The position numbers were made by a program, and so were the translations under genes. 64,000 bases of DNA from Takakia lepidozioides (lineage: Eukaryota; Plantae; Bryophyta). The stretch lies in the NCBI GenBank assembly GCA_030704615.1, contig CM060731.1, positions 14,322,001 to 14,386,000 of the forward strand, given 5' to 3'. The notes beneath the pieces were generated by a model that searched no databases, had not been told where the DNA came from, and saw only the letters and a program-made list of their open reading frames with translations. Position 1 is the stretch's first letter; every line of letters begins with the position of its first letter. Positions 1-41,360 of the stretch are shown piece by piece.

Positions 1-1990
1 GCCAAACGATCAAGAAGACAAATACTTGGTACAACCTAACAAGGGAGGTGTTTCTTGACTACTTGTACGCAGTGAGTTTCTCTACGGACTGCCATTCTTC
101 TTGAATTGTGGATATGTCATGTTTTTGCTTTGGTTTTGTTGTTCACGAGGGTTACATGGGTGTGTCACATCAAGAAATAGCAGAAGCGGGAGAACGAGCC
201 AAGCTGGAGTATTATGCCACTACAGATGGGGATGAGAGAACGGCAAACGGGGTGGAGGCAAAAATGAAGGCGGACATGGATACCTACAGGAAGAACGTGA
301 AGAGCGCGTTCGACAAACACATTCGAATCGCTGACCCCGGATTGGGAAAGGGGTTTCTGGAGCACGTTCGGATCCACTGGGACAAACCCACTAAGCCAGA
401 GATGACACAAAAAAAGCTCCACCGCCTTTCCGTTTCCATGGTTGACCCTGCTCAAAAAGTGAGGTGGAAATCTGGAACTTGGATCCGATCATCCGGGATA
501 CAAACAATTTCCCAAAACCAATGAAGGACGCTGAGACTGGGGTGGTGACACCTGTCAGCGACCGCGCATTTGATACTTGGTTGCACAAAACGACCTTCTG
601 GAGCCAGGTGAGACTGTAAAAACATTCTCACTGTTCCAGCAATGAGTACATGGTTTCTTATGATGAATAACTAAACATTTGGCGAATGGTTGTGCAGCTG
701 GAGAAGCGGGCAATTGATACTTTTGAGAAATCACTGCTGGACTATAAGATCACAATGACCACTCCGAGCATTAAGTTCCAGTCATACGTTCAGAAATGGA
801 GAAGAGAGTTGTGGAAGTATGAATTTTTCCGTGAGTTCGAGAAGGAAAGGAGCATTCTCTGCTTGCAGGACTTCGACCATCAGTATAACGGGGAGCAGGC
901 AATGAAACGAGTTCTGTACAGGTACTGCCTTTTATGGTGATGGTACTCCATTAAGATGTCGTTGACGACATCTTAAAACAAGCATTGTCTATGACGACAT
1001 CTTAAACAAGCATTGTCTATATTGCACATAGCAATTTTTTGGCACTAAACACAAAATTCCATGTATGAAGTGGGTCGATTTAAGGTGGCGTTGACGACAC
1101 CTTAAATCGGTGCCCTTTGGGCTCTTCAAAACTGGGTACACATGTGTTTCTTGTTCGTGTGCAGGTCTTCATTGTTTTGTTGTGCTTCCTGCAATTTAAG
1201 ATGTCATCAACAACATCTTAAAACAGGCATCATTTTCTAGTCCAGCAAGTCATTTTTCTTCAGACACAAAAAAAATACCATGTACGTAGTAGGGGTCGAT
1301 TTAAGATGGCGTTGACGACATCTTAATTGGCTGCTCTTTGGGCTCTCGGAAACAGTTCATGGCGGTTGACGACATCTTATTGGTGGCGGTTGACGACATC
1401 TTATTGGCTGCTTCTTTGGGCTCTCGGAAACAGTTCAGTTGAGCATGTCGGCTTTGTGTGGTTCTGTAGCTCTTCAATTTTTGTTCAAGTTCCCTGGAGT
1501 TTAGATGTCGTCAATGACATGTTAATGTACAGTCTGCAAATCTGCAGTCAACATGTAAGTTCTTGTGGTCTGTGGGAATATCTGCTCTTCAGGAGGAGGT
1601 ACACTTGTGTGGATGCAGGTACTTCACTTCGTTCTCTTCCAGATAAGGCTCTCAGTGAGATCCGGACTTCATTCGTGGATTGGGCGAACCCAGACGACGA
1701 CACCACTAGGTCACTACAGGAATTGTGAAGGAATGGGGTCAGGCTCATTACCGCGACTGGGGTGGTAACTTCGACTGCCCGCGGCAGTCCACTCCATGGG
1801 AGGAGAACGTCTTGAGGAATCAGAATGAGAATGCATATCCTTGGCACTCCGGACAGATGAGGATTTGTATGCTAGGTTCCTTTGCGCAACTGAGTAAGAA
1901 GGAGCCAGCAAAGACGGCCACCCCGCGGGTGGGAGAAGAAAAACAAAGGGAACCAGACTGCGGAGGTAGGTGGGTCTGCCGGTGCCGCGG
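1..1990 (+). pseudogene. ParB-methyltransferase partner gene of copy A, middle exons (frameshifted, truncated)
   Basis: TWYNLTRE, IRIADPGLGKGFLEHVRIHWDKPTKPEMTQKKLHRL, YEFFREF...MKRVLYR|gt and RNQNENA...KEPA align with copy B (21211-21600, 22294-22600) and copy C (34660-35346). Confidence 0.85.
951..1525. repeat. Intronic array of palindromes TTAAGATGTCGT-TG-ACGACATCTTAA (copy A type)
   Basis: Perfect palindrome at 951-976. Variants at ~1077-1108, 1196-1221, 1301-1326 and 1501-1525; half sites at ~992, ~1361 and ~1385. Confidence 0.9.
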
Positions 1991-3313
1991 CTGGCGTTGA
2001 TTCTGGGTTTCACTTGTGAAAGCATTTGCATCCATTCCATTTATTTTCAAACGACTACACACAAGAAAAGAAATGCCACCACATTGCACAACATAATTGG
2101 AGACCTGCATTGGCACCAAATATATGAGGGACATCAGTTCAAGTTTCAACTCTTGTGAAATCCAATAATGGAATTTGCAGATGACAAAGTGAAGAGATGC
2201 TATGTGCTCCTATCCTGTTGCATAAGTTATTCACCTCGTTGAAACTCATGGTGGCCTGGTGAATGAAGATGTCGCATCTAGGATCACAAATCCATTCTGT
2301 TCAAGAAGATAAAATACAGATGCTTGCAGGGTATAAATTTTCCTATCTTTCCCAAACTTGTTTGTAAGCATGCCAACAAAATTATGACAGGTGCAGTTGG
2401 GGAAATTTGAAACTGTGATGTCGTACACCGGTCGTGCATAGCGGATGTGGATAGGTCATCATAGTGTAGATTCATCCATACCCGGGATGTGGAACTTCCG
2501 TAGTGCCTATAAAACGACCTGAAGTCATTCGAGCGGATTCCACCTTGCCGAAATGCTCGGCAGTCGGAGGGAAACAATGAACCAACTTCCCATTTCGTTT
2601 TGTTGGCCATGCATCAGCGTTGTGGGGTGGCACTCCAGAACTTGCTGAATTAGAAGCACTTGCATGTACAGAGGGGGCTCGCTGAAGGGAGAAGCTTGCC
2701 TCCTCCAACATTGGCACTCTCGTGAGTTGTGAGATGTGTCCCCACCTTCACAGGCCAACGCTTGGTGGAGGAGGCTTCATGACAACCGATGGTCAACATC
2801 CCACGCACGCACCTACCACAGTCGTCAGGGCAGAACCAAAATTTGTGGTTCTTTGCCTCGGCTTGCCCGTAAGGCAAGAACAAACCAGTGAAGGTTGGAG
2901 TCGAAGTGCGGACCTTGCCTAGGGATATGGAGGACTTGCATTTCTCACGATTGGTTGCTCTGATTGCCGTGCACTTCACTGAAGACCCAGCAGTGGTGCA
3001 TTCTATGTGCCAGACTTCGTCGGGGCACATGGACTCCACCATAGGGGGGAGCACGTTCGCCTCCTGCCCCATTGCATTCACTGTGGGAGATGGCTGCCTT
3101 TGGCTTTGTGACAAAGGATCGTCCACACTGGATATGCCGGAAACGAACCTCTGATGAAATGGAACACAGCGCATGGAGAAGTTGTCCATGTCCGGCCTGT
3201 GGGAGTCCACATCCGACCCAGGAGGGGTGTTCAATTTCCGTTTACAAGACCCGAATTTCTCCTCACCCTCTAACTTTGGACACCAGTGGAGCTCCTTCCG
3301 CACACATGCTGAC

Positions 3314-4036
3314 TGTCGCGGCCCTTTGCCTTGAGGGCAGGGGGGGTCGAGACACATGAGGGGCTGCCCCTGTGGTGGGCAGCGGCAGCGATAGGATATG
3401 GGGGGGTGCTGAAGCACCCTTGAGTGCCCAAGGCACTCAGGAGGCGGAGGCGCTCACTAGGTGGAGCCCCGCACACCGGGTTGCGGTGGGGTGGCTCCAC
3501 AAGGGGTGGTGGTAGCTTAGCGGACTTAGTGGGGGTGGCATAGGACTCACCATGGGGGCGGAGACCTCGTGGTGGGAGTCGTGGGGAGTCTTGGGACTCA
3601 TCACGGTCCATAGGGGCCGTGGTGAGTGGGCCAAGACTCACCGCGACTCATCACCGGGAGTCGAGGGTTTTCGTGGTGGTTCGCCAAATGGCATGGCTGG
3701 TTGTGAAACCCCCGCGGACAGCTACAGAAGTATATATAGGGAGTAGTACCCCGAGAACGGGCAAGCCCGTTGGTGACCAAAGACTAGTGAGTAAGCGAGC
3801 GAGCCACAAAGCGACCAAAGAGTGGGCAGCTGTTCCAGACTGCCAACTACCAAAGGGAATTCCCGCTGGTTCCAATCGGTGGAGGATTCTTTGGGAGAAC
3901 AAAGGGGGACCGTTATGCCCGGGTGAGCAGCCGAAGCTCCAAGTTGGCCCCGGCGGCCAGGTTGGGGTCAGTCAGCGCGCATCAAAGCGAGTAACTATGA
4001 CTTGAGGGGGAGCTTACCGAAGTGAGGTGCGCGACA
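3314..4036 (+). repeat. 5' LTR
   Basis: Direct repeat of 9489-10235 with 7-bp terminal inverted repeats and a TATATA box at ~3731. Confidence 0.95.
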
Positions 4037-4038
4037 CT

Positions 4039-4050
4039 TGGTATCAGAGC
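4039..4050 (+). promoter_or_regulatory. Primer-binding site for tRNA-iMet
   Basis: TGGTATCAGAGC 2 bp after the 5' LTR; this is the canonical plant iMet PBS. Confidence 0.93.
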
Positions 4051-4089
4051 AGAGTTCAATACGCGATCGTCCTTGGGATTGGCCTCATC

Positions 4090-7000
4090 ATGGGTCGGGC
4101 AAGCCGAAGCGAAAGCGGAACGGCCCAAAAGATGATGATCCTGGTGAGCCCGATGGGGGCGACGTGTCACCGAGGCGGCCGTTTGAGGAAACGATCCATG
4201 TTTCCGATAACGAGGCCGCTCAAGAGCGGGAGGAATCCGAGGAGTCGGAGCCCGAGGAATCCTTGAGAGCTCCGACAAACCAAGAGATGCCTCCCATGCC
4301 GGCAGCCTTTTGGGAAGGGTTGTTGGCGCAGTTTGGCGGGACGTTGAAAGACGTGTTGAAGGCGGCTAATGCCACTTCCACTAAGGCAAAGTTTAAGGTG
4401 AAGCCTAAGGAACCCGGCACCTTCGAGGGCATCCGAAATCGGAAGGCACTCAACACCTGCTCCTGGAGCTAGAGCAGTACTTCCGGGGCCAAGTTGAGTG
4501 ACGAGGATCGGGTGGAAGTGGCTCCCACCTATTGAGGGGCTATGCTCAACAATGGTGGCAGAAATGCCTTCACGACCGAGGTCCAAGCCCGGAAACCTTG
4601 AACTGGAGTGGGTTCAAGGAATTGATGAAGAGACAGTTTGTGCCCTCAACGCGTCCTGGCTTGCCCGGGACAAGATGAGGAATTTGAAGCAAATAGATGA
4701 CATTCGGGGGTATGTCCAGGCTTTCAATGTGGTGTTGCTCGAAGTCGCGGACATGGCAGAACCAGAAATGGTCTTCAACTTTGTGGCGGGACTGGCCCAT
4801 GGGCAAGGGCGAAGTTGGAGGAGAAGCCACCCAAAACTTTGAACGAGCAATTGAGAGGGCTGAATGTTTCTCGGATGTCCCTAAGGGTGAGAGACAAGGC
4901 CGTACGGAGCTGAACCACAAGAAGACCCGGCGGGAAGGTGAGACTCCTTCCGACCGGAAAAGAAGTGGGATAGGCCACGCGGCGACAATGGCACGTGGAA
5001 ATCGAAGGGAGGGGCCTTCACACGTCAAGGCGGCACCCGGTGCTTCGAAAGGAAAAGCAGGTGGAGCGGCTTATGGCGGACAGAAGGCGACCTTTGATGG
5101 AGTGTGTTTCAATTGCGGGGAGCCCGGGCACATGGCCAAGAAGTGCATAATATCCGAACTAACGTGTCGTGTTGGTGGACACAGGAGGTCGCACTATAAT
5201 ATCCGAACTAACGTGTCGTTTTGGTGGACACAGGAGGTCGCACTCCTTCATGACGCAGGGCCGGCAGAAGGCGCGAAAGTTGGGACTCCGAACAAGTGAC
5301 ATAGGGGGCCTCTATGAGGGGCGTTCTGCCAAAGGAGAACCACAGTTTGGAGACCAAGGTTAGCGTTTGATGTTCCTCCTTCAACTGGGGAGTTGGGGGA
5401 CGTGAAAACTCACCATCTGGCGAGATTGATGGAGTGGAGATCTCATTTTGGGGATGACCTTTTGAAGAAATCCGGAGCGGGGCGGGCGGGGGTTTGGGTG
5501 GGGGAGGGGGGCAAATCGGGGGGGGGACGGGGGGGGGGGGGGGGGGTCATAGATGGCCGCAGAGAGTAGCACTCTGCCATGTGGGAATGGTGGCGAGGTC
5601 TTAAGGGGTTGTCGGGAAACGCCCAAATCGGTGGGAGGTGGCGAATAAACCTTATGTCAGAAGGGAGTGGTCCGTGGAGGAGGCACACGAGCCCCAGTTT
5701 TTGCTCTACATTAGAGAAGTGAAGGGAGAAGGCGAGGGGAGCGAGCCCAGATTGGATCAAGGGATTTTGGAGGAAATACCAGGATGTGATGCCGGAGGAT
5801 TTGACCAAGCGCTTGCCACCACGAAGAGGAGTTGACCACAAGATGAGGTGATACCGGGATCGGAAAACCGCCTGCCAAGGCACCCTACCGGTTGAGCCAC
5901 AGGGAGTTGGTCGAGCTGAAGACTCAGCTCAAGGATCTAATGTCAAAAGGGTATATCGGCCGAGTAAGTCACCTTACGGAGCCCCGGTGCTATTCGCAGA
6001 CAAGAGGATGGGACGCTGCGGATGTGTGTCGATTACAGGGCTTGAATAAGGTGACTATTAAAAACCGGTACCCTTTGCCAAGGATCGACGACCTCTTTCG
6101 ATCGGTTGCAGGAGCGAAGTATTTCAGCCGGATCGACTTGCGCTCCGGCTATCATCAAATTCGGGTGGCGGAAGGAGATGAGGAGAAAGACCGCGTGCAG
6201 GACAAGGTATGGTTCATATGAGTTCTTGGTGATGCCTTTTGGGCTCACCAATGCACCTGCAACCTTTAGAACGCTGATGAACAGCCTTTTTCAGGATGGA
6301 GTGGTGGGACGACTTTGTGATCGTGTACATCGACGACATCTTGGTGTACTCGAAAACCAAAGGAGGAGCACCTGGAGCACCTCAAAGGGTGTTCCAAAAG
6401 TTGCAGGAAGGGAAGCTGTATGCAAAGCTTCAAAGTGCGAATTGGGGTCACAAAAGTGGCGTTCCTGGGGCATGTGATTTACACAGGATGGGGTCAAAAT
6501 GGATGACAGAAAGGTGAGGGCAATCTTGGACTGGGAGCTCCGACTTCGGTTCCGGGGAGTGCGATCCTTCCTAGGACTCGCCTCCTATTACCGGAAGTAT
6601 GTGAGAAATTTCGCCAAGATCGCGCGGGGGCCGTTGTCGGACCTTCTGTGTAAATCCAAAGTCTGGGCATGGAACACTTTTGTGGCAAAGCTTTGGCTGA
6701 ATTGAAGCAGCGGATGCGGAAGCTCCAGTCTTGAAAATCCCGGAGTTCGATCGTCCATTTGAGATTCATACAGATGCGTCGGACTTCGCGATTGGGGGTT
6801 GTACTGTATGCAAGATGGACGTCCAGTGGCTTACGAAAGTAAGAAAGAAACTGAATGAAGTGGAGCGGGTGGCCGACACACGAGAAAGAGATGAAGGCGG
6901 TGGTGCATTGCCTTGAGCTTTGGCGCCACTATGTGGTTCCAACCCAGTGAAGGTGTTCACGGACAATGTCAACGTGAAGTATTTTGCCACGCAGCCCAAG

Positions 7001-8586
7001 TTGTCCCCAAAACAACTTAGGTGGCAAGATACTTTGGCGGTGTTCGACGTGGATATCCAGTATAAACCGGGACGGGACAATGTGGTGGCCGATGCTTTAA
7101 GTAGAAAGCAGCAGCTTTGTTGGTGTATAGGGGCGAGACGGCGCTCCAAAGGAAGATCGGAAGGCTTGCCAGAAGGATGAGCTGTGGCAAAGTCGTGATG
7201 CAAGACTGAGATGGGATTAAATCGCAGTTCCATTTGCAAAATAGACTGCTCCGGTATAAGCAAAAGCGCCTCTACGTGCTGAAGGGAGGGATCAGAGATA
7301 GTCTCTTGAGAGAATGCCATGATGGCCCGCTTGCGAGCCACGGCGGAGCCAAGCGCACTGCGGCACTCTTGAAGAAAGAGTATTTCTGGCCCAAACTGAG
7401 GGAGGAGGCAGAGGAGTATGTCAAGACATGCACCACATGCCAACAAAACCGGAGCGAGTACAAAAGCAAGCGGGGCTATTATTACAACCCTTGCGATTCC
7501 AGAGGGGACTTGGGAAAGCGTCTCGATGGATTTCATGACTGCTATGCCACTGTCAAAAAGATTGATGCAATCATGGTGGTGGTGGATAGGTTCAGTAAAA
7601 TGGGCCATTTCATCCCCACCAAGGAGACGGCGCAAAGCGCAGGAGACAGGGCGACTTTCTTCGCACGTCTAAAGCATCATGGAGTCCCGAAAGGATATTG
7701 TCTCAGACCGCGATCCAAAGTTTACGAGTAAATTTTGGAGGACACTTTGGAAGAAGATGGGGACGAGGCTGAAGATGAGCACCGCCTTCCGACTACGACC
7801 GACGGCCAAACAGAAAGAGTGAATTCCGTAGTGAAGCAGATCTTGCGGAATTACGTGTCGGCAGACCAAACAGACTGGGTGGAACACTTAGACGCGGCAG
7901 AGTTCTGTTATAATAACACAGAACACTCCGCAACGGGAGTTTCCCCTTTCGTATTGGTCTATGGAAAAGCACATCTGGTGCCGACAAGTTGGACCGCCCA
8001 GACGTTGAGAACCGGCAGTAGCGGCAGTACTGGAAGAACGCAAGCGTTTGTTGAAGCTCGCAAAGTACAACATTGCCAAAGCTAGGAAACGGTATGAAAG
8101 GCAGGCGAATCGGAAGCGGAGGGAAGTGAAGTTTGAGGCAGGCACGGAGGTCTAGTTGAACATCAAGAATTTCCGACTACCTCCGGAAGTGAGTCCGAAG
8201 TTCGTACCTCCGTATGCGGGACCCTTTCGCATTCGGAAGGTTATGAATGAGGATGTGTATGAATTGGAGCTGCCGGCAAACAGCAAGGTGCACCCAGTAT
8301 TCCATGTCTCCCTTTTGAAGCCTTACTTCAAAGATGAAGCGCGTCGAATCGGCATCAAGTGTTGCGTCCGCCACCTATGCTGTTGGATCATGAAAATGAA
8401 CCTGAGTACGAGGTGGAGGCAATACTTAAGTCGAGGAGGTTCAGGAACCGAGAAACGGAGTATCTCGTCAATGGAAGGGCTATCATCATGTGGAGGCATC
8501 TTGGGTGCGTGCCTCGGAAATGGGAAACGCATCCAGAGGCGGTCGCAGCTTTCGAAGGGCGACCTCAAAAGTGGAAGAAGCGTTGA
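4090..8586 (+). pseudogene. gag-pol polyprotein with chromodomain
   Basis: Zn knuckle CFNCGEPGHMAKKC; protease LVDTG; [23 protein letters not shown] and YIDDILVYS; RNaseH TDASDFAIG and NVVADALSR; integrase HHCC, VVVDRFSK and TDGQTERVN; chromodomain EYEVEAILKSR. Many frameshifts. Confidence 0.95.
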
Positions 8587-9488
8587 TGGGGACATCAACC
8601 TTGGAGCGTGGGGGAGGAAATGCATGCTTAGCCCGGCTTAGCTAGCTTAGGAATCCGATTGCAAAAACTTGTATTGTACAAAAACGTGCTATAAATGAAA
8701 TGGATTCCAAATGTTGTGCGTCCTATTTTGTTTGGAATGGTGATGCATGGTGGTGGCTAGTGTGTAGAATGCATGCTAGCTTATAAAAGTGGGAGAGGTA
8801 AATTGGGTTAATCGTGTGTTTGCGTAGTGCCGAAATCGGGTGACCCCCATCGAGGGGCAAAGAAACTTGCGCCTTCTTTGGGAGTTCACGTGCTAGTGCG
8901 CACCTGGCGCGTGCGCGTACTATAACTGCGCTACCGAGGGGGTTGCCTTGTAGTGCGGGCTAACGCGGGAAGCCACATGCTCCGTTCACGTACTATAATC
9001 GTGTAGCCTCGGGACGAAGTCGTAGTGCGGCTTCGGCGTGTTCCCGTACCTCAGGCCAGCATTCCAAGGCGGACCCAATTGTAGTGATTGGGGCGCACGG
9101 TTGGTTCAAGGTATTCCTAGTCAAAGAGGGTTCCATGTGAACCCTTGCTCAAGGTGATGCCAAAGCGGCATCATGAGCGGTCGCAAGCAATATTGTTGCA
9201 GTAGTAAGGCGATTCGATCCTCGGGGAGGATCGTTCCTTGGCCTTGAAGTAGGCCAAGAAGAGTGCACTGGGAGGAGCTGGAGAGGCTCCACCCTTGGCC
9301 GGGACTTGGAAGAAGTCGGCCGAACTAGCTAGTGGGAGAGTAGAGTCAAGTGTGGGGTTTGGTTCTTTGCCATGGGACGCCATGGTGCGGAAACAAACTC
9401 CTTGATGTGGGACGCCACAACTTGGATGTTCGTTTCTACAAAATGGACAAGTCGATGAGGATTTCGACTCCCTGTTGGTAGGGGTGTG

Positions 9489-10235
9489 TGTCGCGGCCCT
9501 TTGCCTTGAGGGCAGGGGGGGGTCGGGACACATGAGGGGCTGCCCCTGTGGTGGGGGCAGCGGCAGCGATAGGTATGGGGGGGGCTGAAGCACCCTTGAG
9601 TGCCCAAGGCACTCAAGGAGGCGGAGGCGCTCACTAGGTGGAGCCCCGCACACCGGGTTGCGGTGGGGGTGGCTCCACAAGGGGTGGTGGTAGCTTAGCG
9701 AGACTTAGTGGGGATGACATAGGACTCACCATGGAGGCGGAGACCTTGTGGTGGGAGTCGTGGGGAGTCTTGGGACTCATCACGGTCCATAGGGGCCGTG
9801 GTGAGTGGGCCAAGACTCACCGCGACTCATCACCGGGAGTCGAGGGTTTTCGTGGTGATTCGCCATAAAATGGCATGGCTGGTTGTGAAACCCCCGTGGA
9901 CAGCTACAGAAGTATATATAGGGAGTAGTAACCCCAAGAACGGTGCAAGCCCGTTGGGACCAAAGACTAGTGAGTAAGCGAGCGAGCCAGTAAGCGAGCG
10001 AGCCGGAAAACGACCAAAGAGTGGGAAGCTGTTCCGGACTGCCAACTACCAAAGGGAATTCCTGCTGGTTCCAAATCGGTGGAGGGTTCTTTGGGAGAAC
10101 AAAGGGGGACCGTTATGCCCCGGTGAGCAGCGGAAGCTCCAAGTTGGCCCGGCGGCCAGGTTGGGAGTCAGGCGCGCGCATCAAAGCGAGTAACTATGAC
10201 TTGAGGGGGAGCTTACCGAAGTGAGGTGCGCGACA
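9489..10235 (+). repeat. 3' LTR
   Basis: Direct repeat of 3314-4036, followed by TSD CTGAC. Confidence 0.95.
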
Positions 10236-13200
10236 CTGACAGCCCTGGCAATCTTGTTCGGATCCCCTGATCTTTTGCTGCTCGCAACATACTCAGACTT
10301 GTCTGGACCCTTGCCACCAACGCCACCCGCAAGAAACTCCCGATATCTCGTCTGTTGTAGTAGAGCTTGAATCAAATAATCTACCGTCGCCACATACAAA
10401 TCCCGACCCCGCTTTCCAGATTGCTGCAACCATACATTATACACTGTCTCCGCCAGATTGCAAGAGGGCATGTCCGCCATCTCCTCAATTGAGAAGTGCT
10501 GCAAAATGGAAAAACATATATCAGAAAGAGGACAGGCACACCCCAACACAACAGACATGATTGGAAATGGATACAAACTCAATGACATTTGCAAGTGCAC
10601 GCACCATTGACATGCATGCTCCCCATTGTCTGTACCAAAAGTGCCAAAATGCCAGCCAGTCTTCTAGCGCTCTCATACTGTCTTCTGATGCAGCCCCAAA
10701 TGAGAACCATCATGCACGAATTGTCTAGAACAATGTATTCGCCTCTGCCATGCTTTTGGCATCTTTGTACTGTTTGCATAGCCTAAGATAAACAGGCTGC
10801 ATTTCCGGTTTGATGTCTGTCTTTGTATGTTTCTCAAGGGACTGGGTCCAATGGAAAAGACATGTTCGCTCTCTTCCTGGCATTGGCACCTTTGGATCTC
10901 CTGATCCAAACACAATGCGAACAGCATTGAAATTCGCTTGAGCACTGTCGGCCATAAATCCGGCGAAATTTGGAGATGGGACACCTTGGGAGGCCATAAC
11001 GCGAATGAGACTTCTCCACGTTAGCTGCTGCGAATCCGCATCCTCTGATAACATGTCACACACTGCAATTGTCATGACTCGCTAGTAGAAAGAATCGTAA
11101 ACATGACACGCCATTGTAGTCCAGTCTTTCACTCGTTTGATGTGATCAAACATAAGGAAACAGTTCTGAAGATCGCCACCCTTCTGCATGCGCTTCACAA
11201 GACTGACTCCGCTGCCCTCCCGGCTGTGGACATTTTGAAAAGGTAGACTTTGTTCGACCCTTGACCTGGGAACACACTCTCTTGAATCTAGTCATACCTG
11301 CTCCGTCGCTTCAACTCAAAAATGTTATCAACGTACCCTCTATTAGCAGAGCCCATCCTCAATGCATTCACCTGGTTTTTAATGTTCGGCAAGCTCAAGG
11401 TAGAGAAATGATCCATAACATTGTCCAGGGCTGCCCCGTCGAGTTTCCTGCCCACAGAATCTCCTTCACTAAGAATATGGGTTTCCAGGAAAGTCTTGCT
11501 TGCTCCAAGAACAATTGTGGAGGTGGTGGCTGTTGGATTGCTCTCATACTCTTGTCTTATCAACCTGGATACTGTTTCAACACTTTCCTTGTAATCCCCC
11601 TTCGACACTGGATGGTTGTGGAACCCGAAATGCACACCAGCTCTAGTCAAGTTGGAAAAATGTGTGCACCACATAGTAACATTCTTGCTCCACACACTGC
11701 CACACAGGAAGGCGCTCGTTTGCAGAACTTGCAAACAAAAGTGTTGGAGCTTGGAGGTGCTTCACCAGGCTTGAAAGGATTCTCAACGACACCCTCCCAC
11801 TCGCTTTGGTTCTGAACCTCTGACCGCAGGAAATGTCTGCAACTCAAATGCTTGCACCTCAGGTGCCCATTGCACACCGCTCTCCTGAACACGAGCTTGT
11901 CATCAATTTAAATATTGGATGACTTTGTTCAACACCATGGGTGTCCATCGTGTCTCTTGTCCATTCCGTGCATGAGGCTTGAAACAGGTCCACCCCGCCC
12001 AGGTGGCGACATCCCCATCAAAAGACCCCGGAAGGTACTGCACACGCTCAACAGGGACAGTGTCCCAATCAATCCCCCACAATTCACTCTTGAAACCGGG
12101 CATTCCTCTGATTGACTTCAGTTTAGGAATGACACTACACAGGTCCTTCAATTCCGGCACCACGACCACCGGAGAAAGGAATTTTTGGAACGTCCTCCTC
12201 CGAGGAGTCGGAGAGCTCAACAATTTGTCTAGAAGTTGTGGGCTCCGTCTTCACGGCCACATTCCTCTTGTCTTGAACAACAGAAGCAGCAGTTCCCGGC
12301 GTCACATACGAACCAATCAACTACCGGTGAGGAGCTCCAAGGACCCTGTATCTTCCTAGAGGAACTCTCCACTGACTCACAAGTGCGTTTTCATCCGGTT
12401 TCTAGAAAGCATACTTCATCAACTTCCCATCGACACCTTAAACCTCTCTTTCGAGCCACATAGTACCATACTGGAACTCGAAACGCGTTGCTAGGAGATG
12501 TTCTTCCGCAATTGCAAAACCATTGTCATTGGTCTCCTTCGAGAAAGGTACTGGTTTCTCCACAGAGTAAAACTCCGCTTCGGAGGAAGCCATGTTGCTG
12601 CAAGAGAAATTCCCTCGCAGAAGTACGGAAGCCACAAGGTGCGGAAGCCACAACTTCTGTGTGGATTCTTGCTACAAACGATAGTGGGGATTACATTTCT
12701 CATCCTTTGCGTTTCAGACCGAAACCTAGAAGTCCGTCACCTTTACTAACGAGGTCGGAAAAGAACAACACGTCATGTATGTCCCAAACCGTTCTGAAAA
12801 GGTCAGCCAAGACCTATTTTAAAAGCTGACATACCTTTCAGAAACAGTTGTCAAAACAGTTCATAAAACAGTTGGTAAGCAGTTATGTGCCTTTACCGAC
12901 CCATTTGAAATGACGGCGGAGACCGGCATCCCATGCCATCCCAATGTGTTCAGCCACGTGGAACCCGACAATGCATTGAGTGTAGGGTTTAAGAGGAATC
13001 GGCGGCGAACGAATGGAAGATGTTGAACGGGGAGAATCCAAAAATTCTATTGAAATAAGTCATCCATCCGTATCAAATCCATGCGATGGCCATACCTCCA
13101 TAATGAAAGACGTCGGCCACTGCAGAATGGACGAGTGTGCTATTAGGAGGGGGACATGTATGCAGTGAATATATGCATAACCGCCGAGAGCGATGCCCCG

Positions 13201-13809
13201 GCTGCTACTCATCGCACGACGTCCCTCCACTACAACAGAACGCGGTATATCTGACTGCGAGGCCACGGTAGTTATGGTTTCCTGACTTTGACCACGACTT
13301 CCCTATATTTTTGGACCAAATGGGGCTTCACGTAGTCGTTGAAATGACTGCGTGACTACGTAGTCTCTGGGTGACTATGTTGGTAGACTTCATCATGACT
13401 GCATGGCTCCACTAGACGGAAGGTTGGTCAACGATGGTTGACCAGCGCGAGCTCACCACCAAATAGTCGTTGGAATGACTTCTAGTGCAAGGGTGGTAGC
13501 CAATTTTTTTTTTTTTAAAGTTTCTTATAGCCATTAGAGGGCTGGGACTTAGTTTTTTTTTCTCTTTTCTCCTGCGCAGTTTCTTAGTATCAAGCTGTTG
13601 TGTCATGGAACGCGAGGATCGCAGGATAGGGCGTGGGATGGAGGCTTTGCATTGAGCTACTGATGCGGGGCGAAGCGCAACCTGCACCACAACCGCAATG
13701 GGCTCTTGGCTCCTGTTAGTACCATGATGTGGTATTCTTCTTGATGTTTACAAGTTCTTGGGAGAGTCAGCTTGGCTTGGCAGTCCGTGTTTCAATTTTA
13801 CCTTTGTGG

Positions 13810-15540
13810 AAAAGGGTAAAAGGTCCATGGTGACATTGTCAAATTTAGGGTATCCAGAAACAGATGTGGTAGTATTGAGGATACAAAGGGAGTGTTTGAG
13901 AATATGGCTGAACGAACCTAGAGTGTGATGATCATGGGATATGCCCCAGCATGGATGCGGGATGGAGGCATTGGAGACCTATGAGCAAATGATGTGGGAA
14001 GGGTAAAGGCAAACCTGGTCACGTTCGTTTGTAGATGCAATGCGTGTGCGAGCCTGGCAGCCTTGGAAAATGGCAAAGAGGTCCATGCTGACATCATCAG
14101 AGCTAGAATTGTACGAGATGTCATTCCAAACGATACCCTGGTAGATATGTATGCCAAATGTGGCAGCATCGAAGCTGCAAAGAGAAGGCAAATACTACTT
14201 CCATTGAGCGTTTTCATCTGTCTTCCTAGTGCAAATGCTTGGGGGCAACACAGTACAACACAATCCCTGTTTTATAAACGAGCATTGATCACGTGAATTT
14301 AATGATGGTAGGATTCTTCTTCGACCTGTTTCAGCCTGGTTTGCCCTCTCATCAGACTCGGCCCTGAATTGCTCGGCATAGCAGAGCTGGCATGAGGGTT
14401 TTACAGATCCTTCACAATGGTGGGACAACCGCGATCGCAAGGTGTGGCTTTTTCTTAATGTACGATGTGAAGAAGTTTGTCCATCATGCAAATGTGGGCT
14501 CTTGGCTCTTGGCTCTTGGCAGGAAAGCTGGAAAGCAGGTGCACACTCACATTGTCCAAAGTGGATTCACGCCGAACGTTTTTCTACTCAACACCCTTGT
14601 CAACATGTATGTTAAGGGGAGCATCATGGATGATCACCAAGTGTTCAACACAGAATGCCTCAACAATCTTTGATCACGTGGAATATAATGTTGGCAGGAT
14701 TTACCAAGCATGGGCGTGGTACGAATGCCTTGGAGACCTGTGAGCAAATGATGCGCGAAGGGGTGAGCCCAACCACATCACGTTTGTTTGTGTTTGCAAT
14801 GCATGTGCAAGCTGGAAAAAGGGAAAGAGGTCCATGGCGACATTGGTCAAAGCTGGAATTGCACCAGATGTCATTCTGAACACTGCCCTGACCTAGACAT
14901 GTATGCCAAATGTGGATGCATTGAGGATGCAAAGGGAGTTTTCGACACTATGGCTAAACAAGATGTGGTGAGCAAATGATGGGGGAAGGGGTGAAGCCCG
15001 ACCACATCATGTTTGTGTGCATTAGCAATGCCTGTGCAAGCCTGGCAGCCCTGGAGAAGGGCAAAGAGGTGCATGGCGATATCATCAAAGCTAGAATTGT
15101 ACCAAATGTCATTTTGAACACTGCCCTGGCAGCTCTGGAAAAGGGGAAAGAGGTCCATGGTGACATTTCAGAGCTGGAATTGTACCAAATGTCATTCTGA
15201 ACCATACCCTGGTGGACATGTATGCAAAATGTGGGTGCATCGAGCCCTGGACAAGGGCAAAGAGGTGCATGGCGATATCATCAAAGCTGGAATTGTACCA
15301 AATGTCATTATGAACACTGCCCTGGCAGCTCTGGAAAAGGGGAAAGAGGTCCATGGCCACATCTTTAGAGCTGGAATTGTACAAGTGTCATTCTGAACAA
15401 TACCCTGGTGGACATGTATGCAAAATGTAGGTGCATCGAGGATGCAAAGGGAGTGTTCAACACTATGGCTGAACGAGATGTGGTGTCGTGGAGTGCGATG
15501 CTTGCAGGGTATGCACAGCAGGGACGTGGGATGGAGGCTT
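13810..15540 (+). pseudogene. PLS-class pentatricopeptide repeat (PPR) gene fragments, internally duplicated
   Basis: Repeated ACASLAALEKGKEVHGDII, TLVDMYAKCG.IEDA and RDVVSWSAMLAGYAQQG motifs with frameshifts. Confidence 0.9.
14380..14442 (+). pseudogene. OSB-type PDF-motif exon fragment embedded among PPR fragments
   Basis: Translates ...WHEGFTDPSQWWDNRDRK followed by GT, matching the W..FF..P..WWDNR..K half of the plant organellar SSB (OSB) PDF motif. Confidence 0.7.
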
Positions 15541-15928
15541 TGCCACTTGCTTCCCTGGTCTTTGGCAGTCTTCAGCTGCCCCTTGAGTGTATCCACCTAG
15601 TCCTTAAGTGTCTGGACCTGCTGTGAGCATTTCCACCTCTGTCTCCATTTTCCGAGATCGCTCTCTTTCTGCATCGAGGTCGGCTTGGACATGGCGTGTT
15701 TCGTCTCTCTGTCTTTGCCACTTCTATTCCCACTCGTCTCTGCGTTGTATCAAAGTGTTGTATTGGCGAAGTAAGGTCGTCTTTTGATCTTCCAACGATG
15801 CGATTATAACCTCGTGGTTACATACTGTTCTTGCTGTTGCCAATTCCCTCTGATGTTTCTCTTTGATGTGGTCTAAGATCATGCTAAGGTTCTCCGGGCT
15901 TATGATTAGAAGTTAGCTTTACTTCCAT

Positions 15929-17180
15929 GTCAGCTGCTAGCAGCAAGGCAAGGATGTATGCATGATTTGTGCAGAGTCATGGACAGCTGAAGAGCAGGGA
16001 TAGAGTGGGGGTCCAGATTCATCTAAGAAGGCCGGGTTTCAAGCTCCAAATTACCTATCATTCCCTGTGGAAGGACAAGTACAAGAAACAAATGGTCAAG
16101 TGGAAGCCGCATCAGCAGTGGCACAATTGATAAATTCAAGCATTGCTAATGAAGGCACCTTCTTCAACACAATTCACCTGTTTTTCCCTCTTATCAGAGT
16201 TGGCACTCTATTTTCATGTTGAATTCTGCAAGTTAGCTGGTGATAGTTTGGAGTGAGTGACATGATACTGCCAATATGACAACAGGTTCAAGTATCCAAA
16301 AATAGGTAACAGAGATGAGGAGAAGTTGTGGAATGAATACTTTTCTGACCCCGGTCAATGGTGGGACAACCGAGGCAAAAAGGTGAATGCCTGTTAGATT
16401 ACAGAGAGTAGCAGACGCAATTCAGCATAGGAACTAGTGGGATAAGCTGATTGGGTGTTTCCTAGAACAAATCTAGGCTGTCATTGTCAGCTGCTAGCAG
16501 CAAGGCAAGGATGAATGCATGATTTGTACAGAGGCATGGATAGCTAAAGGAGCAGGGATAGAGTGTGCGTCCAAATTCATCCAAGAGGACCCGACTTCAA
16601 GCACAAGATTACCTATGATTCCCTGTGGATCAATAGCTACAAGAAACCTGCATGGGTAGATGGTCAACTGGAAGCTGCAACAACAGCGGCGGAATTGATA
16701 AAATCAGGCACTGCTCATGAAGGCACCTTCTTCAACATATTTCACCCTGTTTTTTCCTCTTATCAGTAGCGGCTCTAAATTTTCATGTTGAATTTTGCAA
16801 GTTAGCTAGTTGAGTGAACCTTTGTAGTTTGGAGTGACTTTTGACATGATACTGCCAATGTGACAACAGGAAAGAATCCAGAAACAGGTAACGGAGACCA
16901 CAAGAAGCTATGGAGTGAATACTTTTTTGACCCCAGTCAACAGTGGGACAATCAAGGAAAAAAGGTGAATGCATGTTGGATTACAGAGAGTAGAAGATGC
17001 AATTGAGCATAGGAACTGGTGTGATAAGTTGAGTTGGGTGTTTCCCAGAACAATTTGAGGCTTTCATTGTCATCTGCTAGCAGCAAGGCAAGGATGAGTG
17101 CATGATTTGTGCAGATCAAGCATGGATAGCTGAAGGAGCAGAGATAGAGTGTGGGTCCAGAATCATCCAAGAGGGCCAGC
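15929..17180 (+). repeat. ~560-580 bp tandem duplication of an exon/intron unit encoding the OSB PDF motif
   Basis: Units start GTCA(G/T)CTGCTAGCAGCAAGGCAAGGATG at 15929, 16486 and 17069. They encode HPRGPDFKHKITYDSLW and LWNEYFSDPGQWWDNRGKK. A continuation of the third unit reappears at ~18135-18230. Confidence 0.8.
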
Positions 17181-19296
17181 AAGAGGGCAGCTCTTTTGTG
17201 TGCTTGATTCTCACTCCCATTTGGTGTTTGTTGTGGTCTCCTTGGTAGGATTTCCCACCACAGCCCCTTTCTTCCAAGCAGCCAGTTGTCAACCTTGCTC
17301 TCCTATCCTTCACCTTCTTCGTCAGTGAAGTACTCCCTTTCTCCTTTTTTATGTTCCAGCCATTTAGGTGGTTTCTCCCTCAATACTGCCTTCATTTGCT
17401 GCATTGCCATGTATTTACTCTCTGTGGTTTTAATTTTCTCATGCCCAATAGTTGGAAGAATTCCATGTGTTAGGCTGATTGCACTCTGAGCTGCAATTTC
17501 CATTCTTTTCAGTGCTTCCCACAGGCTGGCTTTTGCTGGAACAGGTGTGTCCTCTTCACTTAAGTTTTCCTCTCCTCATCATATCTTCTCCAAATCTGGT
17601 CATAGACGTCCTCATTTCCTTCTGTCTCTGGCCCATCATGCTCATCCTCCTTGACTGTCCCTTGTGGTTCAGCTCTTGTTTGTGTGTCTCCATTAAAGGG
17701 ACATCCTTCGTGTGGTGGAATGTTGCTCACAATAAGTGCTTGTTGTGGGGTTCTTTGTAGGATTTTTTAGCTCTGTTCTTCCCTCACTTTTCCTCCTTTC
17801 AGGTGATCATCCTCTCAATTCTAGTGCCTTTGTTTGCTGCATTGCAGTGTGGTTCCTCCATGTGCACATGATCCATTTCTCCACAGTGTGGAGAGACGGT
17901 CTATGGCTCCCACTCTAGGGATCAAGGGAAAGATATGGAGAGTTGTCCATAATTTGCATGCTCACACTATGGACAGAAGTCTAATGGACAGGTTAATGAA
18001 CAGAAGTCTAACTTCTATAACACAGTCCAAGGTGTGGCTCAAGGATGTACCCCCTCCCCCTTTCATGTTGAATTATTCAAGTAAGCTAATTGGGTGGATG
18101 CAACTCACATGTATGCTGAGTGCAGGAGCCTCGTGGATGTAGCAGGAAGCAACAGCAGCAATTGCACACTTGATAAAATCGGGTACCATCATCTTCAATA
18201 CATTTCAGCCTATTCTGTCCTCTTTTCAAAGTAGTCCCTAATTGTCCAGCGAAGGGGAGGATATATATGGATTATGGGTGTTGTGGTAGGGATAGCTAAA
18301 GGGGCACACAAAGTAGGGCTGGTTCTGCTTTCAGTGCACATGGTTCTACTTACAAAAGTATTCGATCAGAAATACAGGGTGCTGAACTTGTGCCCTTAGA
18401 TTGTGTTTTGAGGAGCCAAATTCTTGGACATCAGCGCTATTTTGTAAATCTGACTGGTAGTTGTTTAAGAGAATCTCTTTTTACATCTGATGTTGGCTTC
18501 GGTGTCTTTGTTATTCCTTTGCACTTTGTCACTTTGGTCTTTCTTGTGAATGATGGTGTGTTATGATTTTCCAAATAATATTAAAAACCAAATTCTCAAA
18601 CAACTAATTTGATGCCACGCCTCCAACCCAACAAACTTCTTTACAGTAGGCACCATGACTACACAACATCGCATCATACATTGACACGTGTCATATCCTT
18701 GGAAAAACACATGGCAACGAGCTCCTACAGGCATAGTCATGGGAATGATTTTAAATACATTTAAAATTTAAAGGAAACTAATCATATGACGCCAAAGGTC
18801 CAGATATCAACATGTTGGTAGTCAGGATAATGACTGCAAGGCCTCCTCATAATATGTCACGTGTCAATTTTTGGAGATGCCATATGGCGCACATCCACGA
18901 AAACCTTCCGGACTTATTAAAAAGAGACACGTGTACAATTTGCAGCAGCACATTAAGTCATGTATGGTAGAAGTACATATGACTGCCCTGATAGTGAGAT
19001 GCATCACTTGGTTCATCTTACTGCAGTCATACGTGACCGACCATCATGTACTCATTGTATTCACTTGGTTTGCACGACTTAAAGTCATTGCAGTCATATG
19101 TACCATTTATGACTACGGGATAGTCATATATACAGTCATATATACCACAATCTGTTGTAGTGCTCATTCCAGTAGATCGTAGTTTTTCAAGCTGGAGAGT
19201 AGCAGGAGACAGAGTTCCGCGCCAGACAGTGGAAGGCGTAGAAGACAGTCATTCTTTTTTACTTCAGCGCGAGAGAGGAAGAAGGGAAGAGAGAGA

Positions 19297-22200
19297 ATGA
19301 AAGGTCGCAAGCTGAACATGACACTGAAAGAGATCGCAGAGGAGAGCGCAGCCCTGGAAACCGAACACATGGCGGGGGAGGACTAGCCGCCAGCTCCTGA
19401 TGAAGTTGGGGATGAAACTGCGTCAGAGGACGACACAGACGCTATGGACACAGATGAGGCAGAAGCTCTTGCGAAGGAATCCACGCCGAAGGGGAAGAAC
19501 GTCGTGGAGGAGGAGGCGACGCCGAAGGGTAAGAAGGCTGCCCAAACTGGGAGGACGGCCGCCATTGTTGCTACATCGAAAGCATCTGGGAGTTCTTCGG
19601 CCAAAAGACCTCAGGTGATTCTCTTACTTGCCATCTTCTGTCAAGTTTCCAGGGCATGAAAATTGTGTGCGGTGGCGCACGCAATTTTCTTGCCCTCTTT
19701 TCTGCTATTTTATGCTTGATCGTTCAGAGTAAGACCACAGGGATGCAGGCAATGCACAACACCCAAACCCGGGAGTGACCCACTACTCACCCAAGTAGTG
19801 AGATTAGAGTTCGAGAAATGAGCAATTTCTGGAGGTTCTCTCTATGACATTTTCTCATTTCTCGAACGATCATTACCCTATCTCCGAAGTTACAACTGTG
19901 CTGTGTTATCAGCGACAGAAGCCTTGAAAACTCCGCAAAGTGAGTGTGAGAGAACCCCCAGAAATTGCGTGTGTCAACGCACGCAGTTTCTGGATGTTCT
20001 CTCACACTCACTTTTCTGCCTATAGTGAGATTTGATTAACTGTCTGCAGCATACTTTTATGGAAGAGAGTAGATAGACATTGGGTATGAAATAGGCAAGG
20101 AAATGAGTACCTTTCAGAGGGTAGAAAATTGCGTGTGTTGAAGCACGCAATTTCTGGCAAGTCTTTTACATTCGTAATATATCGTTTTGAGTGTAGACGT
20201 AGAAAAGGAAAGGTGCTACTCAGGTCGAGGAAGAAGTGATTGAGCAGGAACTGGTGGTTGTTGAGGAGGAGGACGATGGCAGGCCCTATGAAGACGGAGC
20301 GAAAGATCTGCTTTCCTTCTCCAAAGTGAATTCTGCCCAAGTCATCAAGGCCATGGGCGTCCCTGGGGGAATAATGATACCCCTATGCCGTCTGATCTCC
20401 ATGCCCTTCGTTCGACCAGCTCTCACGAATGACATTCAAAAGTTGGAACATGATTTTTGCCATGGGTACATAGAGGGTCAATCTGTTTTTTACGTCTCCT
20501 TGGTGGACTCCGCTGGCAGAGAGGTGTTGGTGGACGAGTCCATTGTTGGAGGCTGGGATCCTATCTGACGACAGATAAACGAGGAGTTTGAATCTGTCAT
20601 TTGCAAGAGGCTCGTCACCCAGCCTTTCTCAGGCAAGATGTTTCATGTCTGGGATGGCAACCACCGATTGCTTGCCTGGAGGAACATGATCAAGAGATAT
20701 CATAGCACCAAGGAGGAGTGGCACTACTCTGTGGCCTCAATGGTGCTGGATCCCAAGGGAAACATCACTGCACTGTTGACGGCAATGCATGACGTTAACA
20801 AGTAAGTGTCTCACCTTTTATTGTCCGCATTTTTCCCATGACTGTTTGTTTGCTTTTAGCGCTCGCTGACGACATACCATTGTATGTGACAGGGGAACTG
20901 AAACTGCCCATGTGACAACGAACCTTCTTCACACACTATTCAGGATCCAGAATATCGGCCAGATGCCCCTCAATTCATTCAAGAGCATCGTGAGTGCGGA
21001 GTCATTCAAGAAATAATTTGACATCAAAAACGTCAGATACCTGGTACAAACTGACGAGGGAAGCATTCATGGAGTACATGTACACGTTAAGTATTCCATC
21101 GCTCTAGCCTTCCATTGTCTGTTGTGATTGTCAGTAATAAGTGATCTCATTCCGGATTACGTTTTGCAGCAAGAAATAGTTGAAGCTGGAGAGGAAAAGC
21201 AGAGTACTATTTGAAAAACCCGGAGGGTATGAGAACGTCCAAGGGAGTGGCGGAAGCCATGAAGTTTACGATGCATGAGGTACGGAAGAAGCTCATGAGC
21301 GCTTTCGTGAAACAGCTGAGAATAGCTGACCCTGATTTCGGTCCCAAGTTCCTTAACCAGGTGAGGATCCACTGGAACAATAACACCAAACCGGAGATGA
21401 CACAGGAAAAGCTTCACCGGTTGTCAACTGTAGCGGTGGAAGCAGACCTGAAAGTGAAATGGTTGGAGATTTGGAATTCCGACCAAACTGTCAAGGATAC
21501 ATACTGCTTCCCTAGGGGTGAAAGAGATGAGAACATCAGGCACATCAAACCTTCAGCAACCAAGTTCTTGATACATGGTTGCACAAAGCCACCTACTTGA
21601 GCCAGGTACTTTTCAAGACTTTCTTTGCTCAAAATTTTGAGAATATCTTCCCATGCATGGAATCTAACCCATGCATATGTATACCTGCAGATTGAAGCTT
21701 GTACAAACAAGGTGCTGGAGAAACAGCTTTATGACTACAAAATTACCATGACCATGCCTGAGGACACTTTGGAGGATTACTTGAGGCAGTGGAAGGCCAC
21801 TACTTGGAGCAACTGCTTCTTTAGAGAGTTTTCCCGAGATGGAGGCATCTCCCGCACAAATGACTTTGACTAGCAGTACGGGGCGGAGGAACCATGAAGA
21901 GGGTCCTATATAGGTTCGTTGATTTGTTTTATGTTTGGAAAATATCTTTGGCAATTAGTAGACAGACAGTTTGTGGCCATGCAAAACTGCATGTGCCAAC
22001 GCACGCAATTTTGGAGGGCCACAAACCCAGATGTGTTCTCTCCTCCATCATGTCTTTCATTGGCAGTTCTGAATGGAATATCTGTCTGCCGAGAATGGGA
22101 TATCTTTCTGCATATGGAACCCTTGGTTTTCTCCTGTTCTTACATATGTTACTTGTGAGTGTATTTCAGTTGCCTCATGCTCAAGTATGTGTGCACCCCA

Positions 22201-24350
22201 AAATTGTGTGCGTCGACGCACGCATTTTGGGAGGGCCGCAATATATGTTTTTTTGCCTTCATTGTCTAAAAGTGTACCTCCTTTTTTTTGTAGGTATATC
22301 AAGAACGTGCTCATTCCGGGAAAAAACCTCAGTAAGTACCCTGCCTTCATCGATTTGTGGACCTCTGACCCCTCTAATAGTCAGACCATGTACACGGTAG
22401 CCATCCTCAGAGACTACGGAAGATATCACCTTAAAGACTGCTGCTGGTATCTTGACATTCCCAAATCAGATTGCCCCTGGTATGAGTTGCAGACACGGAA
22501 CCAGAACGACAATGCGGAGTCTTTGGCCCCTCTCACTGACAAAGAATTGCATGAGAGGAATCTGCTGAACCTCGCTGAGAAGGAACCCGCAGCCAACAAA
22601 ACTCATGTGAGAGGGAAGGGAAAGGGAAAGGATACAAAGGACGAAGGGAAGGAGAAGGCCACCCAAGGGGAGACTGCGGGGGGTGAGGTAGCGCAGACCC
22701 CAATTGCAAACAAGGAACAAAAACGTAAGGGGAAGTTTGAGCCATACGACGCAGTGGAGCACCCATCTAGAATCCAGCGAGAATGTAAATGCGAGTTTGT
22801 CAATGATTCGTTCCTTGCCATGATGGAAAGCAGAAAATCTGGTTACACTGGAGAACCCTCTCGAACTTGGGGCAAGCTGTGTGCATTCCTTGAGTCGGTA
22901 AGCCAATTCCCACTATTTGTCTCCATTAATGTTTTCCATTTTGGATAGTTATTTAATTTTTGTCGTCTGTCTGTTTTCCGGTTTCGAAAGGGCAGTGTTG
23001 GGTCAATGGTACTTAGAAACCATATGGTGCCGACATGGTGATTGTGGACATTCCGGATGGGCTGCCAGTACCGGATATTCTACCCACAGGCACCTGCCCA
23101 ACATGGAATGCATTCGATGAGAGGTACTGGCGGTGGGTCTTTCATTTTGCAATTTTTTTTTATCGGATGCAGGGGTTATTGTAATGATCCAGTCCGTCAA
23201 TACGAAATGTCGACGGGAGCTTGCAAGCTACCTCAAGGTCTTGGGGATGAAAATCATCGAAACGTGGAATGGTGTGAACAGCCTGTACTTGACAAAGGGC
23301 GACTGTCCCGGACAAATGGTAAACGACCTGCTCTTACCTGCTTCATTTGAAGTTCAATTTCACCCCTGCAGAAATGAGTGCGTCAACGCACTCATTTTCG
23401 GTGGTTTCAAGCACTGCTCTTTCCAGATGATTTTTTGGGGATTCACTAATATGTGCTTCATGTTGTCTTGTGTGTAGACCCGCCTTTTTGAGGCCGTATG
23501 CCTCGTCAGAGTGCACCTGCTTCAACTCCCACAGCAGTGAAAGAGTTCAGGCTTCATGGGGGAGGTTGTTTAATCAACGATAAGTTCGATCCAGTGGTGG
23601 ACGACATGCACTACAATTACGTGGATTCCAATGTGTGCTTGCAAAAGTTCCACACCATGGAGAGGGGAAGAAGGAGAAGAGCCCATCATTTATTCAAACA
23701 ATTGTGGAGAATAGTTCCCATCCGGGGGCGCACATCGTGGACCTCACTCTTGGCACAGGTTTCACCCCGAACCTGTTGCGGTGTTTTCTTCTTGGTGCAA
23801 AATTTGATTCATCGTCCTAAGAGTACTCTGTCTTGCAGGAGCTTCGTACCATGCTTGTAAGGCAGCGGGCACACATTTGTTTGGTATGGAAGGGGATGCG
23901 GCCATTTTCAATGACCTCCTCCATAACTTGGAAGCGCCATTGCCTGCCGCCCAACAACATGAGGGTATAGTGAATGTGGAAATCAACGAAGGGGACGACA
24001 AAGTCCTGGACGACAATTTCGCATGTGAGTAAGTTATTTTTCTATAAGTATCCGATTTCTCCCACGAAAATGGCCCCCCCTTTCTCATTCATGGTGGCTA
24101 ATGCAATTGTGGTACTTTGGGTGGCAGGATATTGGAAGCTATTCCTTTGGTCGACGTCTCTTTTCTTCACAGTGACTTGTGGTGCAGCCCTCCACGTTCA
24201 TACATCCTACCCGACTACGTGGAGGCCATTGCTCGTCAACACAGTTTCATGTTATCTCCCCCATGTGCTCGGAAGCACAACAGGCACCTCGGAGCTCGGG
24301 TTTACGTCGATGATACAGCACAAGTTTCAGGGGATAGTTCTAGTGACTGA
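19297..24350 (+). pseudogene. Spliced ParB/Srx-like + beta-class amino-DNA-methyltransferase-like gene (copy B partner, all domains present)
   Basis: Acidic/basic N-terminus; IPLCRLISMPFVRP...FHVWDGNHRLLAW (DGNHR at 20653-20667); ADMVIVDIPDG (DIPDG at 23047-23061); KEKSPSFIQTIVENSSHPGAHIVDLTLGT|GASYHACKAAGTHLFGMEGD. Premature stops at 19384 and 20566, plus frameshifts. Confidence 0.8.
19658..23397. repeat. Dispersed intronic palindromes AAATTGCGTG(T/C)GT-CA-ACGCACGCAATTT (copy B type)
   Basis: Copies at 19658-19689, 19958-19993, 20124-20154, 21982-22013, 22197-22231 and 23372-23397 (perfect AAATGAGTGCGT-CA-ACGCACTCATTT), all within predicted introns. Confidence 0.85.
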
Positions 24351-40800: not shown

Positions 40801-41360
40801 TTTGGCCCGTGAAGGTGGGAACACATCTCAGCTTTCAGGAGATTGAAATGCTGGAGGAGGCAGGTTTTTCCCTTGCGAGACAACCCCAACTCCATGCATG
40901 TGCTACTACTTCTGCATCCTCCCAGGTCCCCCCCGCAAATTCTGACTTGTGGCCAACCAAACGAGATGGAAAGCTCGTTCGGCGTTTCCCTCCAACCGCC
41001 GAACACTTTGGCAAAGTGGAGTCCGCAAGAATGCTCCAAGCTCGTGTTGGAAGCACCATGGAAGTACCCGATCTAGGATATGGTCGGGTATTCACAATCA
41101 TCACTTCCACATCTGCTGTTCATGACAGGACCTACGACATCACGGTTTCCAATTTCCCCAATTGCACATGTCCTGATTTTGTGAATATGCTATCAACCAG
41201 TTTGGGCAAGAGAGGTAAATTCATACCCTGCAAACATTTGTATTTCATATTTTTGAGGAGGATGGTTTGCGATCCCAAACGTGACAACTTCATTCATCAG
41301 GCCACTATGAGTTTCAACGAGGTCGATACTCTTTTGCAGCGGGATACAACACATGGGTAG
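37846..41360 (+). pseudogene. MULE-type DDE transposase with GCM-like domain and SWIM finger (copy C), nearly intact
   Basis: One intron at 39859-39975; LMFDHVK, FMADSAQANFNAV, RTCLFH and SWIM CTCPDF...CKHLYF. Lesions are TAG at 39277, NLAK instead of NLAE (40024-40026) and a frameshift near 40515-40550. Confidence 0.92.

Follow-up and report, generated by a model that had tools for sequence, protein, structure and literature searches.

The closest working precedent for the locus described here is the VANC/VANDAL system of Arabidopsis, in which family-specific motifs build up as tandem repeats in the introns of VANC and VANB and direct sequence-specific hypomethylation (accessible sections of Hosaka et al., 2017; PMC5735166). 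A second comparison is offered by parS, whose palindromes are bound by a ParB dimer with two-fold symmetry (Jalal et al., 2020, in the portion available; PMC7383237). The DNA analysed here is a plant-like stretch of 64,000 nt (the window) crowded with nested elements, in which three gene copies carry palindrome arrays in their introns; the named relatives of the gene suggest a non-seed land plant. By analogy with the VANC/VANDAL arrays, and judging from sequence, we consider it slightly better than an even bet (a probability of about 0.55) that these palindromes would be double-stranded-DNA recognition sites for the ParB-like/methyltransferase-like protein of the accessory gene that harbours them, itself borne by a Mutator-like element (MULE). 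The gene copies and the intron from which the analysis started are as follows.

1 to 2010, forward strand: gene copy A (ParB-like/methyltransferase-like), frameshifted exons 3–6 only, truncated on one side at the window start and on the other at a junction near 2010
19297 to 24030, forward strand: gene copy B (ParB-like/methyltransferase-like), with premature stops
32300 to 36989, reverse strand: gene copy C (ParB-like/methyltransferase-like), with premature stops
922 to 1618, forward strand: intron 5 of copy A, GT–AG, with the palindrome array; probable boundaries, placed by homology with copies B and C

The three copies are diverged versions of one multi-exon gene (exon-4 peptides approximately 52–56% identical), and stops or frameshifts break all of them. 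A further gene copy, fragment D, is represented at 27030–28465 by the C-terminal methyltransferase exons and the right terminus, directly after the end of element B (27029); it could be what copy A lost at its 3′ end when element B inserted. Between fragment D and element C lies an open frame of 264 amino acids (29026–29820) without a significant Pfam match, and at 53633–55117 an unbroken 494-amino-acid frame corresponds to a host gene for a nucleotide pyrophosphatase/phosphodiesterase (PF01663, E 4e-99).

The gene product joins a ParB/Srx-fold domain to a beta-class amino-methyltransferase-like domain, the catalytic motif of which is non-canonical. Relatives of exon 2 number 481 in a set of representatives clustered at 50% identity; those with names are Adiantum and Selaginella models. 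The predicted fold of this exon (pLDDT 95.7) finds its top structural matches in ParB, Noc, PadC, KorB and Srx (sulfiredoxin), with modest scores and consistent ranks: the top 10 Foldseek rows are all ParB/Noc/PadC (best E 0.013, probability 1.00, TMq 0.43; none at E ≤ 0.001), and the best VIA match is KorB (Z 7.8, r.m.s.d. 2.5, 90 aligned), the top nine rows being ParB/Srx-type or related. An R, a DGNHR and an N are invariant in 11 close relatives, copy C reading DDNHR, and we take these residues to resemble the CTP motifs of ParB. In the C-terminal exons the order is permuted, with the catalytic motif before the SAM-binding motif as read from the sequence, and the methyltransferase matches are all weak (PF01555, E 0.026; a PHROG DNA methyltransferase, E 0.0086; Atlas, 0.90). 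The canonical (D/N/S)PP(Y/F/W) motif did not occur in the examined copies, which read DIPD (B and C), DIPE (related locus L038), DYPE (L006), DIPS (L028), DMPD (Selaginella) and DVPF (one Adiantum model). Methyltransferase activity is doubtful because of this non-canonical motif.

The helical middle domain yielded no recognisable helix-turn-helix and no other DNA-binding fold: with a 647-residue model of partly low confidence (mean pLDDT 55.6, about 90+ at residues ~300–385), Foldseek gave no match and the best Z was 5.6. Pfam found neither DUF1985 nor DUF287 in the window exons or the spliced homologs, sequence searches of the PDB gave no informative match, and a word search with exon 6 of copy B gave none. 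Exact-pattern scans, which are insensitive, detected no relatives in viral contigs or prokaryotic genome contigs.

The intron of copy A contains five palindromes and three half-sites, listed here without strand.

951 to 976: site A1, a perfect palindrome centred on TG, with arms of 12 bp
992 to 1005: a right half-site only, inside a local duplication of ~29 bp
1080 to 1105: site A2, with a paired A>G/T>C change and an unpaired T>G variant
1196 to 1221: site A3, with a CA centre and both core CpGs decayed in the window copy
1301 to 1326: site A4, with an unpaired T>G variant
1365 to 1403: two right half-sites (starts 1367 and 1391), from local duplications
1500 to 1525: site A5, with a CA centre, degenerate

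Site A1 is exactly as a preliminary description of this DNA had reported it, and the spacing of ~105–200 bp given there agrees with the measured 105–199 bp (full sites after 951 start at 1080, 1196, 1301 and 1500, at distances of 129, 116, 105 and 199). A 22-nt pattern allowing up to three mismatches has five matches in the window, compared with 0.00 in 100 shuffles. The flanks, with which the preliminary description had proposed comparing the motif, are less conserved in copy A, at an identity of 0.56 (random 0.48) compared with 0.84 for the motif, a value inflated by the choice of members for their likeness to it. The copies had also been thought to lie in both orientations. Here the earlier reading fails: the intron contains a tandem unit of ~245 bp with two sites, and since the copies at 951 (TG) and 1196 (CA) lie in direct units, whole-unit inversion is ruled out and only the central two nucleotides differ. 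Decay of a CpG at the centre could produce this difference, and so could inversion of the spacer; CG centres occur in 7 of 101 sites, and AG/CT centres in locus L021. The decayed bases 1206 and 1212 of site A3 are G in other genomic copies of family A (four runs, one sample). In contigs of one sample, high depth over sites A1, A2 and A4 (depth not being copy number), together with unrelated loose ends, gives only a hint that the motif is present in other contexts too.

Copies B and C carry arrays of their own, again listed without strand.

22-mers near 19663, 19965, 20129, 21987, 22204 and 23374: copy B, six sites of the TTGCGTG arm type, distributed over introns 1, 5 and 7
33787 to 34509: copy C, intron 5, six sites of the TGAATGT arm type, perfect and G-variant sites alternating as in copy A
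36384 to 36605: copy C, intron 1, three degenerate sites

The 16-bp core said to be common to copies A and C, in introns that are otherwise unlike, is borne out: it is identical to three of the C sites, and BLASTN aligns essentially the palindromes only.

The arrays were followed through related loci, taken as the best 80 of 248 from one metagenome scan and reduced to 61 by removal of near-duplicates, which with the three window copies gave 64 regions. The common architecture is a pair of family-specific 7-bp arms flanking a CG-N4-CG core. Such palindromes number 52, in 25 of the 64 regions, compared with a mean of 0.63 and a maximum of 2 in 30 dinucleotide shuffles, and CG spacers of 0, 2, 6, 8 and 10 nt give 0, 4, 1, 0 and 1 sites, respectively. 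Outside the copies there are none in 79,772 nt of flank and one in 51,500 nt of the window. Among arrays with at least three members, 18 of 23 are of the CG-N4-CG type, across distant clades; of 242 half-sites, 126 have CG at offset -4 and no more than 10 have it at any other offset. Annotated exons, which make up 23% of these regions according to an incomplete tblastn annotation, contain none of the 101 array members. Counting decayed arrays, sites are present in all three window copies and in 27 of the 61 loci from the best-80-of-248 set; they were not seen in the remaining 34. Many of the 61 loci are short, but those without sites include 9 of the 22 with at least 1 kb upstream, two of these nine being half-site loci. 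A single motif is common to separate introns of one element in copies B and C and in L021, L025, L033, L057 and L062. In a palindrome-blind test the top repeated 9-mer falls in such a site in only 15 of 33 regions, or in 10 of the 33 under stricter bounds, and other repeat motifs also occur in the introns. None of the 14 family half-site consensuses was found in the flanks; MITE or Helitron ends were rejected as the source of the arrays, the flanks carrying no such motif.

The arms are clade-specific and follow the protein tree (a quick-version tree without copy A), a pattern accounted for equally well by shared descent and by co-evolution. L004, L021, L033, L069 and copy C have lost none of their core CpGs; in loci that are poor in CpG and contain several stops, these have mostly turned into TG/CA. 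Dead copies are thus not immune to host methylation. Some loci depart from the common pattern. In intron 1 of L070, L074 and L080 two palindrome types alternate ~20 bp apart, both with decayed CG-N4-CG cores in L070 and L074; a six-palindrome array in L002 (1–200), the only such family seen, has its CG pair spaced by 2 nt rather than 4; and in L020 and L077 non-palindromic G-rich motifs, possibly a second recognition motif, are repeated in intron 1 and in a later intron.

The palindromes could also act through base pairing, either in the pre-mRNA, as hairpins with a role in splicing or small RNA, or in the DNA, as cruciforms. The intron of copy A does fold more stably than 20 shuffles (z -4.0), as would any palindrome array, and the AAGGT...ACCTT change previously singled out as symmetry-preserving is real (positions 1085 and 1100), but the same copy has an uncompensated T>G at 1088, which it has in common with the copy at 1301. 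An excess of such paired changes is not observed: over 18 arrays, compensatory non-CpG changes number 9 against 15.5 expected under a null inflated by asymmetric families, and in the window 4 against 2.5 (P = 0.19). On the sense strand, G-U mismatches (56) are balanced by A-C mismatches (51; P = 0.70). Moreover, the half-site occurs unpaired, as direct arrays, in three relatives (10 copies in L008, 22 in L025 and 5 in L060), being palindromic in L004, L021 and L039, respectively. Hairpin selection is rejected on these three grounds, which indicate instead half-site recognition on double-stranded DNA. The fixed spacer length and core and the absence of Rfam matches in the window also speak against a structured RNA, and we consider base pairing very improbable. 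Of the selection on a dimer-binding site or hairpin suggested earlier, it is the protein-site half that stands, given a motif identity above that of the flanks and a family-wide conservation of core and location.

What is conserved is thus the sequence of the half-site itself: 13 of the 14 sites in L033 are asymmetric, the half-site recurs unpaired, and position -6, although different from family to family, is constant within arrays except in 2 of 202 half-sites. To judge from these sequences, the pattern fits protein readout of double-stranded DNA, not base pairing. A neutral origin must also be weighed, in which one ancestral palindrome was tandemly copied and template switching homogenised the arms and flipped the spacer. 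Tandem units are evident, the spacer pairs TG/CA and AG/CT are both present, and paired changes show no excess; template switching can homogenise arms and invert spacers without selection (available text of PMC8604942), and can in this way explain single paired changes and flipped spacers. Yet such a process leaves unexplained the CG-N4-CG core fixed across distant clades, the same motif in separate introns, the restriction of similarity between the A and C introns to the sites and the persistence of asymmetric sites, as in the 14-site array of L033. We regard it as distinctly unlikely as a full account.

The elements that carry the gene copies bear on the identity of the binder.

31537 to 41966: element C, whole, 10.4 kb, with an 11-bp target-site duplication (31526–31536 and 41967–41977) and degenerate terminal inverted repeats of ~250 bp
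37847 to 41360, forward strand: MULE-like transposase with a C-terminal SWIM finger, head-to-head with gene C, with one in-frame stop and one frameshift
2211 to 12599, reverse strand: second MULE transposase, with an LTR retrotransposon inside, head-to-head with gene B, its presumed partner

Element C is a MULE by its transposase, target-site duplication and termini. The best Atlas matches of its transposase are to the PF10551 MULE set (score 0.93; 18 of the 30 matches listed), the SWIM match (E 0.0042) lies below the Pfam cut-off and a Pfam search of the window exons gave no direct MULE match. The 11-bp duplication, present in the window only at the two flanks of the element, falls in the size range of MULEs (9–11 bp), and the terminal inverted repeats have a local score of 134, compared with a maximum of 105 in 200 shuffles, although their extreme ends differ. 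Of the eight related loci that extend more than 5 kb upstream, three repeat the head-to-head layout of gene and transposase; no transposase was seen upstream in the other five.

Other insertions surround these genes. The retrotransposon within the second transposase (3314–10237) is of the Ty3/gypsy type, with LTRs 93% alike, a 5-bp target duplication and broken frames. Flanked by a target duplication of 3 bp, a CACTA-ended element of 5.9 kb (13228–19162) lies between this transposase and gene B; its cargo, read by eye, comprises apparent PPR-gene fragments, and an 845-bp CACTA-ended piece at 25359–26203 is related to it. The element ends at 31537–31800, 41700–41966, 26780–27029 and 28370–28465 have short subterminal repeat motifs in common, unlike the intronic palindromes, and plausibly these are transposase sites.

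It may be asked whether the sites, if selected for protein binding, serve the transposase of the MULE or else a transcription or chromatin factor of the host, the array then being an intronic enhancer or boundary. The evidence for half-site recognition would suit any binder, a DNA-binding domain was not found in the accessory protein, and MULE transposases can cause sequence-specific hypomethylation (accessible text of bioRxiv 10.64898/2026.08.24.746577). The same text, however, places the transposase effects at the termini, whereas the arrays sit in the accessory gene and the termini bear different motifs; a reading of the palindromes as terminal transposase sites was rejected. Arms that differ wholly among families would also be unexpected in plants with common host factor repertoires. 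We consider another binder unlikely.

Under the reading that we prefer, recognition by the accessory protein itself, the protein would read a half-site of ~10 bp (the 7-bp arm, CG and one further position), usually in dimeric form, with an unconstrained 2-bp spacer between the half-sites. Site number would grow by tandem duplication, template switching perhaps symmetrising arms or flipping the spacer, and selection would hold core and arms alike across different introns. Following the VANC precedent, clustered binding could let the element distinguish its own copies from other genomic DNA, and could counter host cytosine methylation or regulate the divergent promoter of the element. A more elaborate version, speculative and on the whole doubtful, is that non-seed land plants host a Mutator lineage with a captured prokaryote-type ParB–methyltransferase: a nucleotide-dependent clamp would load at the parS-like intron palindromes and spread along the element, and the methyltransferase-fold domain would write or shield the paired CpGs (for example, as N4-methylcytosine), amounting to a self-marking anti-silencing system built from parts unrelated to VANC.

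The transposon self-recognition and anti-silencing systems in the literature surveyed are those of flowering plants; were the preferred reading correct, the principle would reach non-seed plants too, built there from entirely different components of bacterial type, and a ParB/parS-like logic would operate on eukaryotic chromosomes. The 14 natural half-site variants, matched with protein variants, also provide material on the evolution of sequence specificity. Our literature search, which most subscription journals lay outside, found no published description of the gene family or its arrays; the main text of the 2026 preprint on transposon regulators (bioRxiv 10.64898/2026.08.24.746577) mentions neither moss, ParB nor methyltransferase.

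Compared with VANC, as presented in the accessible sections of PMC5735166, the present protein has ParB-fold and methyltransferase-like domains in place of DUF1985/DUF287 and, by its predicted domains, is not a VANC. VANC motifs are 8–9 nt long and in one orientation, whereas the present sites are mostly palindromes of ~22–26 bp with a CG-N4-CG core; binding and demethylation have been demonstrated for VANC and are predicted for the present system. The pairing of ParB with an amino-methyltransferase recalls phage loci with ParB and a DNA methyltransferase and the eukaryotic Dam fused to ParB-HTH (Iyer et al., in the text available; PMC4738411), and this combination is likely to be of prokaryotic origin. 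In the same text, however, the families are algal or fungal, whereas ours is MULE-borne with a non-canonical catalytic motif, and its survey of adenine methyltransferases from eukaryotes, as far as available, contains neither of the two Selaginella homologs. MpDN4MT1 of Marchantia and N4CMT of bdelloid rotifers likewise are beta-class amino-methyltransferase folds in eukaryotes with CG-containing targets. In their available main texts (bioRxiv 2021.02.12.428880 and PMC8885841) they are host genes with a (T)SPPY motif, absent here, and the word 'ParB' does not appear; from its predicted motif, the present protein is neither of these nor a canonical N6/N4 methyltransferase. Finally, unlike ParB/parS in the sections available of PMC7383237, the present system belongs to a eukaryotic transposon, has a longer site and a fused methyltransferase-like domain and shows no identified ParB-type HTH, and element C contains no ParA gene. 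Yet like ParB/parS and Noc/NBS, as described there (Jalal et al., 2020), it has a ParB/Srx-fold N-terminal domain and multiple palindromic sites whose half-sites diverge between members.
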